From NCBI GenBank assembly GCA_027923505.1, contig BROI01000038.1:62001-126000 (forward strand): 64,000 nt of DNA, given 5' to 3'. This DNA is from Mayamaea pseudoterrestris (lineage: Eukaryota). Below the pieces are notes generated by a model, which worked only from the letters and a program-made list of their open reading frames with translations, did no database searches and was not told the origin of the DNA. The first letter of the stretch is position 1. The number at the start of each line of letters is the position of its first letter. Shown piece by piece: positions 7,135 to 11,451 of this stretch. Both the position numbers and the translations under genes were made by a program.

Positions 7135-8535
7135 TCACTCGTAGGACAATGTATCCTCTTCCACCAAGTCAAAATCTACAGTGCCACTGCTTCCTTCGAC
7201 ATTGCCAACTATAGGCTCGTCGTCCACCTCAGTTTGAACGACACTCGACGAGACGGCTCCACCATTTGCCTTGTTGGCATTCATTTCGGCAAAGGCGATT
7301 CGAACGTCAGATTCCAACTGCTCCTCCAATTGGGCATTCTGCTTCATCATTTCAATGACATTCTGCCGACCTTGCGCCAACTGATTGCCTTTGTAATTGT
7401 ACCAACTGCCTCGACGCTCGACAATCTCCAAATCCAATGCGGCATCCAATGTACAGCCGCGTCGATCAATACCAGTGCCAAAGAGAATATCCAAATTTAC
7501 AACCTTGAAGGGAGCAGCAATCTTGTTCTTGACAACCTTGACCTTGACGCGAATGCCAGAATTGTCTGGTAACACTTCCTTGCGACGAGTGTCCAGGCGA
7601 ACTGATGCGTAAAACTTGAGTGCATTGCCTCCACTGGTAACTTCGGGGCTGTCAAAGGAAGAGCGATAGATATGATTGAGCAGTTAAATGGAATGCGTCA
7701 ATGCAAGAATAAAAGAGCAAGCCCAAGCAAAACCATCACCGGCAAGAACCTACCTTCCATAAATGACTCCTACCTTGCTGCGCAATTGATTCAAAAAGAT
7801 AACCGTCGATTGACTCAATGATAAGGATCCCGTAATTTTGCGCAGTGCCTTGCTCATCAGACGAGCCTGCAATCCAATCTGTGCATCCGACATGTCGCCC
7901 TCCAGTTCGGCTCGAGGCACTAGCGCCGCCACCGAGTCGCAAACAATGACATCGACGGCCGCGCTCCGGACCAACTGATCAATAATATCAAGTGCCATTT
8001 CACCAGAATCTGGTTGCGAAACGAGCAAGTCATCAATCTTGACACCCAGGGCTTCCGCGTAGGCAGGATCAAGCGCGTGTTCGGCGTCAACAAAGGCAGC
8101 CGTTCCGCCATTGCGCTGGACTTCCGCAATCGCATGCAAGGCCAATGTCGTTTTGCCACTACTTTCTGGTCCATAAATTTCAACGACGCGTCCCTTTGGG
8201 TATCCGCGGCCACCGAGTGCAGCGTCAAGTGTTAGTGCACCGGATGGCGTGCATTCGACTTGGTACTGCGAGGCGGAACCAAGACGAACGACGGATCCTC
8301 GACCATAGGCTCGTTCAATTTGATGCAAGACGCCATCAAGAGCAGCCTTTTTGGCCGGATTCATGTTACTGTCAGTCGAGTCATCTTCGTAATCTTTGGA
8401 TTCGGGTGCTGCCGCCTTCTTTTTGGCGGCAAACGAAGTGGAAGCAAATGGACGGCTTTCCGGCAGATTACGCAGTACAAAGCTACTGCCTGACACAAAT
8501 AGCAAGGCAGTCAAGAGTAGAGCGAACGACTTCAT
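7135..8535 (-). CDS. recA: Nuclear-encoded, probably plastid-targeted RecA; intron 7753-7649
   Basis: Walker [39 protein letters not shown] and [11 protein letters not shown]. Signal peptide ends GSS-F. Confidence 0.96.
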
Positions 8536-8906
8536 GATAGTATAATAATCACGTTGCTTATGTAATCAGTAGTGAGAAAGCGACTTTGATGGATTTGCGT
8601 CGCAGCAAGAGTTTCTCATGTCGGACCACGAACCAGTGCCACACACGCCGGAGTTTGCTCTCAGCTGTTTTGATGACTCCATTGTATACTATTGCCCATT
8701 GGATGACGGTGGTCGCGTCTCGTCCATCGAATCTGTGGACCGCGCCGATCGAGGTCACCTCGAGCTGCGTGGATGACGAAGGGTGATCGCACTTGCGTTG
8801 GAGCTGCGATAATTATACACTTGCCGTCGCCTTGTTTGCAAGCCTCCTTTCTTCACATTTTTATTACTCGCAAGCAGCACTAGCCCGGTTTCTGGGAGCC
8901 TCTTTC

Positions 8907-9115
8907 ATGCCTGTACGTTGCGCGCGAGCTGTTGGAACGAATGGAACAAATAATGGAAGAGGCAGCAGCCATCACTTTTCTCGCACAGCTTTTACTGACC
9001 CTTTTTTCAACAATTCTACTGCACAATTCAGCCGGTCCTCCAAGCAGAGATCAATCCGTTTGTTCTTCCCATTGTCTTGGCTGTCGAAGGAAAGGCCAAG
9101 AGCTATCCTTCCTAG
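8907..9115 (+). promoter_or_regulatory. Spliced regulatory uORF in SAMDC leader (8907-8912 + 9032-9115): MPPVLQAEINPFVLPIVLAVEGKAKSYPS*
   Basis: Donor GTACGT at 8913, branch-like TACTGAC at 8993-8999, pyrimidine tract, and first downstream AG at 9030-9031. The spliced frame ends CCT TCC TAG, 74 nt upstream of the SAMDC ATG. Confidence 0.7.
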
Positions 9116-9189
9116 CACGAATCAAAGGGACCTTTACTCTCTATCACGTACTCCAGTACTATTCACAGCAATACTGCTGACTGTAACGA

Positions 9190-10644
9190 ATGCCACTTAT
9201 TCTACCAGATATCGCTGAATCCTCCCATGGCAGCAGCAATGGCGATGGAGGAGTCGTGATGACGACAACGCTGCGTCCGTCGTCTCCAACGACTGTCTCG
9301 CCGACTCCAGACGCTCTGCAAGATGTTGAAATTGCTTCGACTGGATCAGGAGCCTTTTCATGGGCGGATCGAGAGTATACTGGCATGTTTGAAGGACCGG
9401 AAAAGACGCTCGAGATTGTCTTTCGTCGATCGCATGATGAGCATGTCGATACAAGCATTGGAGAAGTCATTGAACAAGGAAGCACAAATGGCTGCAATGG
9501 GAATGGATTGCTTCAGGTTGCACCGCACATTGTTGATGATGGCTTGGTGCAGCGCGTCGGCTTGCGCAAACTTCAGCGAGCTGATTTGGATCTGATTTGC
9601 GGACGCGCTCGCTGCACCATTCTTTCGTGCATCTCCAATCGCTACATGGATGCATACGTCTTGTCGGAAAGTTCCTTGTTTATCTATCCCTACATGCTCG
9701 TCTTGAAGACTTGTGGGACGACAACCTTGTTGCGATGCATTGCGACGGTTGTTGAACTTGGCCGTCGCATTGGCTTGGAAATTGATTGGGTCGGTTACAG
9801 TCGCAAGAATTTCAACTTTCCTGGCGACCAAGCGTTTCCGCATCAGTCCTTTCATCAGGAGCTTGACTACTTGTATAGTCACCGCAACTTGTGCGAGCGC
9901 CTTGACGGTAATGGTTACACCCTCGGACCAGTCAATGGTGATCACTGGTTTGTCTTTGTTGCGGATCAGACAATTCGCGCCAAGGCTTTGGACCAAGACA
10001 CTGACCGGGTCTTGAACATTATGATGTTTGACATTGACGAGTCGGTGAGCAAAAAGTTCATGTACGACGAGTATGACACAAACATTGACGGTGAAAGCAA
10101 GGAAGCGGAAGTGGAGCGTATTTCGCGCGAACAGACTTGCAAGTCGGGCATTAGCAATCTATGCCCTGGTGCAGTCATTGATCCGCGTGCGTTTGAACCT
10201 TGTGGCTACTCGATGAATGCAATTCTGTTTCGGTCGTACACAACAGTGCACATTACTCCGGAATCGGGAAGTTCGTATGCTAGTTTTGAAACGAACCAAA
10301 AGGTGGCCAGCTACAAGGCATTGATCAGCAATGTTGTTCGCAACTTTCGTCCGAAGCGTTTCGTCATGACGCTCATGGCCGACGAGGGTGGTTTGAAGCA
10401 AGTCAAGGATAATCCATTGACGGATAGTGGTGTGCATGCCAAGATTGTTGTACCATCGACTGACAAGGGTGGAACACCCATGGTGTACAAGCGGTCTTCC
10501 TTGGCGTCCATCAAGATGGAAGAAGATTGCTGCTGCATGATGGGAAATTGGGTCTTGGAGAAGGCGTCATCTGTTGCGTTGGACGGAATGGCGATTGTTC
10601 AGCGTCCGCGTGGATTTTCAGTTGGCGGAGTTGGTGCTGGGTAG
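9190..10644 (+). CDS. SAMDC: S-adenosylmethionine decarboxylase proenzyme (eukaryotic type)
   Basis: FEGPEKTLEI, autocleavage site YVLSE|SSLF, LKTCGTT, FEPCGYSMN and TVHITPE...SYASFE. Confidence 0.97.
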   Translation: MPLILPDIAESSHGSSNGDGGVVMTTTLRPSSPTTVSPTPDALQDVEIASTGSGAFSWADREYTGMFEGPEKTLEIVFRRSHDEHVDTSIGEVIEQGSTNGCNGNGLLQVAPHIVDDGLVQRVGLRKLQRADLDLICGRARCTILSCISNRYMDAYVLSESSLFIYPYMLVLKTCGTTTLLRCIATVVELGRRIGLEIDWVGYSRKNFNFPGDQAFPHQSFHQELDYLYSHRNLCERLDGNGYTLGPVNGDHWFVFVADQTIRAKALDQDTDRVLNIMMFDIDESVSKKFMYDEYDTNIDGESKEAEVERISREQTCKSGISNLCPGAVIDPRAFEPCGYSMNAILFRSYTTVHITPESGSSYASFETNQKVASYKALISNVVRNFRPKRFVMTLMADEGGLKQVKDNPLTDSGVHAKIVVPSTDKGGTPMVYKRSSLASIKMEEDCCCMMGNWVLEKASSVALDGMAIVQRPRGFSVGGVGAG

Positions 10645-10724
10645 TTAATATCTGATTTGTGGACGGCAGAGAGAATTGATGGACACTTTCGTGATGCGTT
10701 ATTGAATGACTATATGCCTGACTG

Positions 10725-10765
10725 TGAATGAATGAATGAATGAATGAATGAATGAAAGAAAGAAA
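10725..10765. repeat. (TGAA)8(AGAA)2 microsatellite downstream of SAMDC
   Basis: Directly visible tetranucleotide repeat. Confidence 0.95.
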
Positions 10766-11451
10766 TAGCAAGTATATGTATACCTTTCACTAGCTTTTTC
10801 TATTGTTAATTCCGTATACTAATGTTCTATCCACGTCCAAAGCGATACGTCGCCAAAATCTTGATCCGAAAGTTGACATAAACCTCTACCTACATGAGTT
10901 GTCGATTAAACGGATCATCATCTTCCAGTAGTGGTCTAGCATACCGCCATACTGCTGCACTGCTGCATTTTAATCGCAATGTCGCCGGGCCAAAACTACC
11001 GGCATGATCTCGGGAAGAACTACGTCGCACCACGACTGCTGCGACAAGTTACTGCTTCGACCGAATGGTTTGGTTCACAACGAGAGGATTCGTTCTTCGC
11101 CAAGTTGTAATTGTAAGCTTCAACTTCCTACTTAGTAAGTATGATGATTCATGTCGTACTGGAGTGGGAAAGCTTCTGTTGAGTACAATATACACTAATT
11201 AGACGACAGGACGCGACGAGAGTAAGCTCACAGTGACCGAAGCAACAATTGAGAAGAGCAGCCGTCGCTACAAGCGTGGCCTGCTGCCGTTGCCATCTTA
11301 CTGCGCCGTACTGTATATTATGGCAAGCTAGCTTCTCTCAAGTCTTTATATTGTTGCGTATTTCGGTCTTTGTAATTACTGCTTGACTTACGATCATTTG
11401 ACTCGTTTTGCAGCTACGTATCTTTCGTTCCATTACATTCAACGCATCAAG

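Follow-up and report, generated by a model that had tools for sequence, protein, structure and literature searches.

An Intron-Split Upstream Open Reading Frame in the S-Adenosylmethionine Decarboxylase Leader of Mayamaea pseudoterrestris: A Homolog of a Known Diatom uORF

Results and Discussion

The SAMDC Locus and Its Leader

The DNA analyzed here is a stretch of 64,000 nucleotides from the diatom Mayamaea pseudoterrestris (assembly GCA_027923505.1, contig BROI01000038.1, positions 62,001 to 126,000 of the forward strand); we refer to this entire stretch as the window, and all coordinates given below count from its first letter. The region of interest harbors a gene for S-adenosylmethionine decarboxylase (SAMDC, or AdoMetDC). 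Its main open reading frame, positions 9190-10644 with a coding capacity of 484 amino acids, matches the Pfam family SAM_decarbox (PF01536) with E=3.2e-89, which confirms the identity assigned to it in the original prediction, a note made from the DNA letters only. The deduced protein has 1379 relatives at E<=1e-20, all named ones of which are from diatoms, and its N-terminus agrees with the family consensus MPxxxP. Upstream of SAMDC, a RecA-like gene is encoded divergently on the minus strand (7750-8535).

Direct reading of the SAMDC leader reveals an ATG (8907-8909) followed by the codon CCT (8910-8912) and the donor GTACGT (8913-8918). A branch-like TACTGAC is present at 8993-8999, and the first AG downstream of it occupies positions 9030-9031, so that an intron of 119 nt (8913-9031) is delimited. 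The resulting 8912/9032 junction yields the peptide MPPVLQAEINPFVLPIVLAVEGKAKSYPS, followed by a TAG codon (9113-9115). This upstream open reading frame (uORF) comprises 29 codons, Met-Pro from exon 1 and 27 more thereafter, and terminates in Pro-Ser-stop (CCT TCC TAG, 9107-9115); with 74 nt between its stop codon and the SAMDC start codon at 9190, it is separate from the main open reading frame. The contig-covered part of the leader ahead of the uORF (8803-8906) was scanned for ATG triplets and contains none, the uATG thus being the first one there, and once the intron is removed, the interval bounded by the uATG and the main ATG contains no such triplet besides these two (positions 0 and 164 of 167). 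With T at -3 and C at +4, the uATG stands in a weak context, tttcATGc. All of these features, i.e., the uORF with its Pro-Ser-stop terminus, the 74-nt gap, the interval free of other ATGs, and the weak start, had been anticipated in the original prediction and are borne out by our inspection. The various elements of the locus are compiled in Table 1.

Table 1. Features of the SAMDC leader and gene in the window.
Feature	Position	Strand	Basis
SAMDC leader exon 1, minimum extent	8803..8912	+	Contigs X2, X3, X4; no ATG before 8907
uORF codons 1-2 (ATG CCT, Met-Pro), directly 5' of the donor	8907..8912	+	ATG-NNN-GT likewise in 10 distinct metagenomic loci
GT..AG intron, 119 nt, phase 0, after uORF codon 2	8913..9031	+	Contig junction, three of four runs
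uORF codons 3-29 (PVLQAEINPFVLPIVLAVEGKAKSYPS), conserved core FVLPIVLAV..AKSYPS	9032..9112	+	HMM, published diatom peptides
uORF stop TAG plus next base C (UAG-C)	9113..9116	+	C after the stop in 37/37 rows
ATG-free spacer of 74 nt, uORF stop to SAMDC start	9116..9189	+	Direct reading, ATG scan
SAMDC proenzyme, main ORF, 484 aa, without intron in the window	9190..10644	+	Pfam PF01536, 3.2e-89

If the leader is left unspliced, the ATG at 8907 opens a frame of 103 codons (8907-9218) that runs across the main ATG. We considered this frame as a candidate conserved feature and rejected it, since in all 10 of the other loci with a split uORF (see below), the unspliced frame ends within the intron. 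The overlap with the main ATG is consequently found in the window only (0/10 other split loci), and we assign no role to it.

Contigs From Three Sequencing Runs Join the Two Exons of the uORF

Four public sequencing runs (X1-X4), all stemming from one study and of unrecorded kind, contain the stretch, and their contigs were aligned over positions 8500-10800. One contig each from X2, X3, and X4, i.e., from three of the four runs, joins position 8912 to position 9032 ('skips 119, GT..AG'), exactly at the splice sites that had been proposed. The flanks of this junction measure 110, 80, and 107 nt in the X2, X3, and X4 contigs, respectively. These begin at positions 8803, 8833, and 8806, so that the uATG is included, and extend to 10713; the spliced contigs thereby carry the uORF and the main open reading frame on one molecule. 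Contig ends do not mark the start of transcription, and the extent of exon 1 given in Table 1 is hence a minimum. The contig derived from X1 is unspliced and colinear with the window, and we infer from this pattern that X2-X4 are transcript assemblies and that X1 represents DNA. Neither a retained intron nor an alternative acceptor was detected in the contigs of X2-X4, a type of assembly from which rare forms are dropped. Those parts that X2-X4 leave uncovered (8585-8802, and the intron apart from its junction) were excluded from the evidence. Single-base differences between the window and the contigs are found at positions 8654 and 8681 (T>C and A>T; both in X1 and intergenic) and at 9592 (C>T; in X4 and within the SAMDC open reading frame); they probably reflect alleles or differences between strains.

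The uORF Peptide Is Conserved Ahead of SAMDC and Under Purifying Selection

Starting from an alignment of 20 sequences, we collected 80 loci encoding SAMDC relatives from metagenome contigs and inspected their upstream regions without reference to the window. Many of these loci possess, on the same strand, a short upstream frame that ends in ..[IV]VFVVPI[LV]LAV..AK.[YF]PS-stop. A first hidden Markov model (HMM), built from 22 metagenomic uORF cores picked by this pattern and with the window left out, recovers the window frame 8999-9112 with E=1.1e-5, the next match on either strand of the 64-kb window having E=1.5. A second, iterated HMM, which likewise leaves out the window and is based on 33 sequences (the 22 seeds, 10 from the first round, and locus L066 added by hand), finds the window uORF with E=4.1e-7 and the next window match with E=1.2. 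At E<0.1, a uORF homolog is present in 36 of the 80 SAMDC loci, each time on the plus strand and upstream of the SAMDC match; these positives are composed of the 22 seeds, the 10 first-round sequences, L066 (placed by hand), and three weaker matches in L019, L048, and L052 (E 0.007-0.09). On the opposite strand, or outside of the upstream region of the 80 loci, no HMM match at E<0.1 was obtained (best value, 0.16). The uORFs that are contiguous have a length of 25-31 codons (21/21), which corresponds to 75-93 nt from the uAUG to the stop codon.

In the available DNA of the other 44 of the 80 loci, among them some entire clades of the SAMDC tree, no uORF match was found. We do not count these 44 loci as cases of absence, since the 5' exon of one of them, L010, falls outside its available DNA: L010 aligns to the uORF-bearing, transcript-like contig L012 only from position 315 of the latter onward, with 99% identity over 186 nt. 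Position 315 of L012 lies within the N-terminal coding part of SAMDC. The exon carrying the uORF is separated from the rest of the gene in this species, either by an intron exceeding ~1.4 kb or by a break in the assembly.

For a test of selection, 22 of the 37 rows were compared over 17 codons. Duplicates (L003, L060, and L074) were dropped, as were rows with insertions, deletions, or divergent tails (L002, L008, L011, L019, L020, L048, L049, L052, L053, L059, L067, and L068). In the frame of the uORF, pooled pS amounts to 0.665 and pN to 0.246, yielding a pN/pS of 0.37 and a Jukes-Cantor ratio of 0.18; when the very same nucleotides are read in the two shifted frames, pN/pS rises to 1.13 and 2.20. 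This ratio is low in the uORF frame only, and it is therefore the peptide itself that is under purifying selection, and not merely the nucleotide sequence that is conserved. Fourteen of the 17 core codons of the window encode the same residue as those of L001, a locus resembling Phaeodactylum tricornutum. The copy present in the window departs from the consensus at two sites: it has Asn-Pro ahead of the core where most of the homologs have Ile/Val-Val, and GAA at +7 to +9 after the stop codon, vs. CCC in most.

An Intron After the Second uORF Codon Is Shared by a Group of Loci

In 10 distinct loci besides that of the window, an ATG-NNN is directly followed by GTAAGT, GTGAGT, or GTACGT (L001, L002 [identical to L003], L004, L005, L018, L019, L049, L059, L065, and L067). 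All 10 possess an AG ahead of the conserved frame, and their introns, with acceptors chosen by us, measure 87-184 nt. Two related loci display both states of such a leader: the short contig L011 has ATG CCG joined straight to TAC AAG, and the genomic locus L019 reads ATG CTG GTACGT, continues for an intron of 87 nt, and resumes with AG|TAC AAG, which is exactly where the alignment to L011 begins. In a quick tree of the SAMDC proteins, from which eight of the 80 loci with a longest match of <250 residues were left out, the window falls into a supported group (SH-aLRT 97) of eight rows, seven of which have a split uORF.

The uORF is unsplit in six genomic loci (L025, L026, L042, L054, L057, and L075), and the intron is consequently not needed for the function of the family. 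Loci of this unsplit type display two further peculiarities. Some 10-15 nt upstream of the uAUG, they have a GCCUCG...CGAGGC hairpin with a conserved stem and a variable loop (L025:709-730, L026:1001-1024, L042:1018-1033, L054:1186-1207); its z score is -4.3 in L042 and weaker in the others, and nothing comparable exists in the window or in L001. In these two, no significant hairpin was found just upstream of the uATG (z=+0.75 for the window, z=-0.17 for L001). Furthermore, a donor-like GTGAG is located ~40-60 nt past the uORF stop in L025 (~866-875), L026 (~1154-1163), and L042 (~1178-1187), and the gap from the uORF to SAMDC amounts to 200-300 nt in the unsplit-type loci with this site. This suggests that the leader intron in this group is located downstream of the uORF and not inside of it.

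Start and Stop Signals of the uORF Family

At -3 of the uATG, 26 of 33 rows have T, five have C, two have G, and none has A, and the base directly following the uATG is C in all but one (32/33). The main start codons of these loci, by comparison, have A at -3 in 28 and G in two of 35 cases. Judged from these base counts, a weak uAUG context is common to the whole family, and it looks as if it were built for leaky initiation.

The uORFs of the 37 rows stop with TGA (26) or TAG (11), and TAA is not used. In each of the 37 rows (34 distinct ends), the base following the stop codon, +4, is C; +5 is A in 29 of the 34 distinct ends, and +7 to +9 are mostly CCC. The main open reading frames of the same loci served as the control: TAA is used in 11 of them, and +4 is C in nine of 33. 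In yeast, a C after any of the stop codons compromises sampling by eRF1 (PMC4748822).

The last sense codon is TCC in 30, TCT in three, and CAG in one of the 34 distinct ends, so that Ser is the final residue in 33 of them. The penultimate residue is Pro in 26 of the 34 distinct ends and a different one in eight, which read VS, FS, IS, AS, SS, YQ, DS, and YS (L008, L011, L019, L020/L074, L048, L052, L067, and L068). These homologs retain both the C after the stop codon and the hydrophobic core, and it follows from the eight ends that Pro-Ser-stop by itself is not the conserved determinant. Of the features proposed in the original prediction for a comparison of orthologous leaders (a conserved peptide, dN/dS<1, and a Pro-Ser-stop terminus), the peptide (homologs in 36 of the 80 loci) and its purifying selection are found, and the terminus is shared in part.

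Relationship to the Published Diatom uORFs

According to the original prediction, no such uORF is known to have been described in diatoms. This claim fails, since Ivanov, Atkins, and Michael (NAR 2010, PMC2811004) had already reported that diatom AdoMetDC mRNAs carry uORFs with a penultimate proline, and they printed two of these peptides, both homologous to that of the window. Supplementary Figure 2 of PMC2811004 lists MPSVPKVIFVVPIVLAVPGQAKSYPS for P. tricornutum, located 56 b from the main open reading frame, and MPIGSQISVDIFAFVSYLLAVASAKSFPS for Thalassiosira pseudonana, located 86 b from it. The published peptides derive from ESTs and are known there from sequence alone. Splicing of L001 at ATG CCT|GTAAGT...CAG|TCC produces exactly the published P. 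tricornutum peptide, with the same gap of 56 nt. The window peptide matches that of P. tricornutum in 18 of 26 positions when aligned by hand. The uORFs of the three diatoms have in common the gene, their place in the leader, the Met-Pro start, and the ..PIVLAV.G.AKSYPS* core and end; the window copy has 29 codons and a spacing of 74 nt, vs. 26 codons and 56 nt in P. tricornutum and 29 codons and 86 nt in T. pseudonana, and it differs from the P. tricornutum uORF by three extra residues and several substitutions within its N-terminal third. Based on these sequence comparisons, we regard the window uORF as the ortholog, in another diatom, of the conserved AdoMetDC uORF known from Phaeodactylum and Thalassiosira.

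In the wording of PMC2811004, the uORF peptide 'always contains a penultimate proline' save in vertebrates and the sea squirt; the eight non-Pro ends in our data set run contrary to this statement. Neither 'intron' nor 'splic' occurs in the text and supplement file 1 of PMC2811004, nor does 'context' or 'Kozak' occur in supplement file 1. A literature search in a library covering only a minority of subscription journals uncovered neither another article dealing with AdoMetDC uORFs of diatoms nor an experiment on their function. The intron after the second codon in 10 further loci, the uniformly weak uAUG, and the C after the stop codon in 37 of 37 rows hence appear to be unreported so far. What our analysis adds is the confirmation of splicing in one more species, and 36 further loci that show how widespread this uORF is.

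Comparison With Known Polyamine-Responsive uORFs

For both Arabidopsis AdoMetDC1 and the mammalian AdoMetDC, polyamine-induced stalling of ribosomes at the uORF stop codon has been described (PMC4330380). The sequence-dependent 'small' uORF of plants and green algae precedes the same enzyme as the uORF of the window, and there, too, a basic residue comes before the terminal Pro-Ser-stop (..KKPS*, ..KFPS*; PMC2811004). It is, however, 48-55 codons long, vs. 29 in the window, and only the ..PS* end is common to both when they are compared by eye. Plants possess, in addition, an overlapping 'tiny' uORF, for which there is no counterpart in the leader of the window, as no ATG is present in 8803-8906; leaky scanning at this diatom locus would rest on the weak uAUG itself. 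The yeast HOL1 uORF (MLLLPS*), at which termination depends on eIF5A and is inhibited by polyamines, with repression of the main open reading frame (PMC10855120), resembles the window uORF in its Pro-Ser-stop end. It differs from it in having six codons instead of 29 and in serving another gene, that for a polyamine transporter, and the diatom family, unlike HOL1, has a conserved hydrophobic core and lacks the Pro in eight of 34 distinct ends. The vertebrate AMD1 uORF (MAGDIS) again precedes the same enzyme, and its termination stalling is modulated by polyamines, but it is a hexapeptide positioned 14 nt from the cap and devoid of Pro, and one of the named exceptions to the penultimate-proline rule (PMC2811004). 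With respect to both its length and its sequence, the window uORF is not of the MAGDIS type.

A further point of comparison is the uCC of AZIN1, a homolog of ODC. A study by Ivanov from 2018 is said to describe for it a near-cognate start codon, a pause in elongation at Pro-Pro-Trp, and not at the stop codon, and the queuing of ribosomes. By analogy, the window uORF might resemble it in having its weak start codon placed 5' of a pause that responds to polyamines. The distance from the uAUG to the stop codon in the diatom family corresponds to about three ribosome lengths, and a queue behind the paused ribosome could increase the use of this start codon.

A Model for Polyamine Feedback and Its Alternatives

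A uORF that comes into being only by splicing, a true SAMDC gene downstream of it, the Pro-Ser-stop terminus, the weak start, and the purifying selection exerted on the peptide together make the window uORF resemble a sequence-dependent regulatory uORF. In these respects, the regulatory interpretation put forward in the original prediction is upheld; it loses its claim to a first description in diatoms, and the Pro-Ser-stop is weakened as its essential determinant, given that eight of the 34 distinct ends have no penultimate Pro even though 33 of them end in Ser. That stalling during termination responds to polyamines in the diatom uORF as well would be an extrapolation from plants, yeast, and mammals. 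Taking all of this together, we consider it probable that the window uORF is an ortholog of the known diatom SAMDC uORF that acts through a polyamine-enhanced arrest of termination.

According to this model, some of the scanning ribosomes would start at the weak uAUG. Once such a ribosome has reached the stop codon, Pro-Ser would be situated in the peptidyl-transferase center, and the FVxPIxLAV motif, 9-17 residues back, would reside in the exit tunnel; the stop codon followed by C would present a poorly read context. Release of the peptide would hence be slow, and polyamines would be expected to slow it further. The arrested ribosome would then block the scanning subunits behind it, so that synthesis of SAMDC would drop at high levels of polyamines. 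At low levels, either leaky scanning or reinitiation over the spacer would yield the enzyme. Any mRNAs that start downstream of position 8907 would bypass the uORF.

It is conceivable, albeit unlikely, that the uORF arrests ribosomes at its stop codon whatever the polyamine level, either as a constitutive damper that depends on the peptide or as a sensor of another metabolite such as SAM, dcSAM, or methylthioadenosine. The sequence data indicate selection on the peptide together with unfavorable start and stop signals, and they do not point to any particular effector; the Pro missing in eight of 34 ends loosens the tie to the Pro-Ser-stop mechanism that involves eIF5A and polyamines. Against this stands the fact that the effector is a polyamine in every one of the tested AdoMetDC uORF systems dealt with in PMC4330380 and PMC2811004. 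Moreover, SAMDC is the committed step for the supply of aminopropyl donors, so that feedback by the product would be economical.

Splicing might itself be the regulated step, with intron retention or an alternative acceptor toggling the sensor and the main effect being exerted via the fate of the mRNA. We judge this to be quite improbable. It draws on the position of the intron after the second codon in the window and 10 distinct other loci, and on the donor-like GTGAG soon past the uORF stop in three of the unsplit loci (L025, L026, and L042); furthermore, stalling in Arabidopsis AdoMetDC1 reportedly triggers nonsense-mediated decay, as the title of a 2014 report by Uchiyama-Kadokura has it. 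Yet, the uORF does without an intron in six genomic loci, rows with a split uORF group together in the tree, as would be expected from shared ancestry, and the unspliced frame overlaps the main ATG in the window and in none of the 10 other split loci. The contigs of X2-X4, from which rare forms would have been lost, are also free of a retained intron or another acceptor.

Highly improbable, in our assessment, is a function of the 29-residue product as a hydrophobic micropeptide that acts in trans, its place ahead of SAMDC being either incidental or serving co-expression. Such a peptide would be subject to purifying selection, as is observed, and the core FVLPIVLAV is strongly hydrophobic; by our reading, however, the hydrophobic run of ~9-11 residues is too short to span a membrane. 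The homologs occur only upstream of SAMDC matches and on the same strand, and both the weak start and the conserved bases past the stop codon (+4 C in 34/34; +5 to +9) fit control in cis and not the making of a peptide product. There is virtually no chance that the uORF is a functionless frame created by a fortuitous GT..AG interval, as nothing but its small size would speak for this, and the exact joint in three runs, the HMM score (E=4e-7 vs. 1.2), the frame-specific selection, and the published orthologs all speak against it.

Physiological Implications

SAMDC commits S-adenosylmethionine to the synthesis of polyamines, and the long-chain polyamines that diatoms use in silicification place an unusually heavy demand on aminopropyl groups. 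Given this demand, the control of SAMDC in diatoms is of real interest. The polyamine-arrest model that we favor has a variant that takes the architecture of the leader into account: the weak AUG and one further codon (6 nt) directly precede a phase-0 intron, whose place is kept in at least 11 distinct loci, and the putative arrest peptide and the stop codon follow on the next exon. In one large clade of diatoms, the sensor might consequently exist only after splicing, and the selection of splice sites or retention of the intron might, in combination with a ribosome queue that extends to the weak AUG and with inefficient reading of the stop codon, constitute a tunable gauge of polyamines, perhaps tied to the demand for the long-chain polyamines that form silica. 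We offer this variant as a speculation with a rather small chance of being correct.

Several features of the family are amenable to experimental testing, namely the pyrimidine at -3 of the uAUG, the UCC/UCU-stop-C end, and the length of 25-31 codons. That the penultimate Pro is common and not obligatory bears on the question of whether the eIF5A-dependent Pro-Ser-stop model is sufficient.

Observations in the Vicinity of the SAMDC Gene

The hexanucleotide GTACGT, the donor of the uORF intron and, according to the original prediction, of other introns in this DNA, is found 20 times in the window, vs. 14.9 expected, and is thus not enriched; the sole neighboring intron that can be deduced, that of the RecA-like gene, begins with GTAGGT and not with GTACGT. 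The RecA Pfam match of this divergent gene ends at profile position 197 of 262, and its frame apparently resumes after an interval of 105 nt (7649-7753, minus strand) that starts with GTAGGT and ends with ..gacAG, an intron similar in size to that of the uORF and different in its donor. Ahead of the RecA domain, there is an N-terminal extension of ~60 residues that may function as an organelle-targeting peptide. Just past the 3' end of SAMDC, a (GAAT)n run is present at 10727-10757, and positions 10714-10800 were masked as a repeat in the contig alignment.
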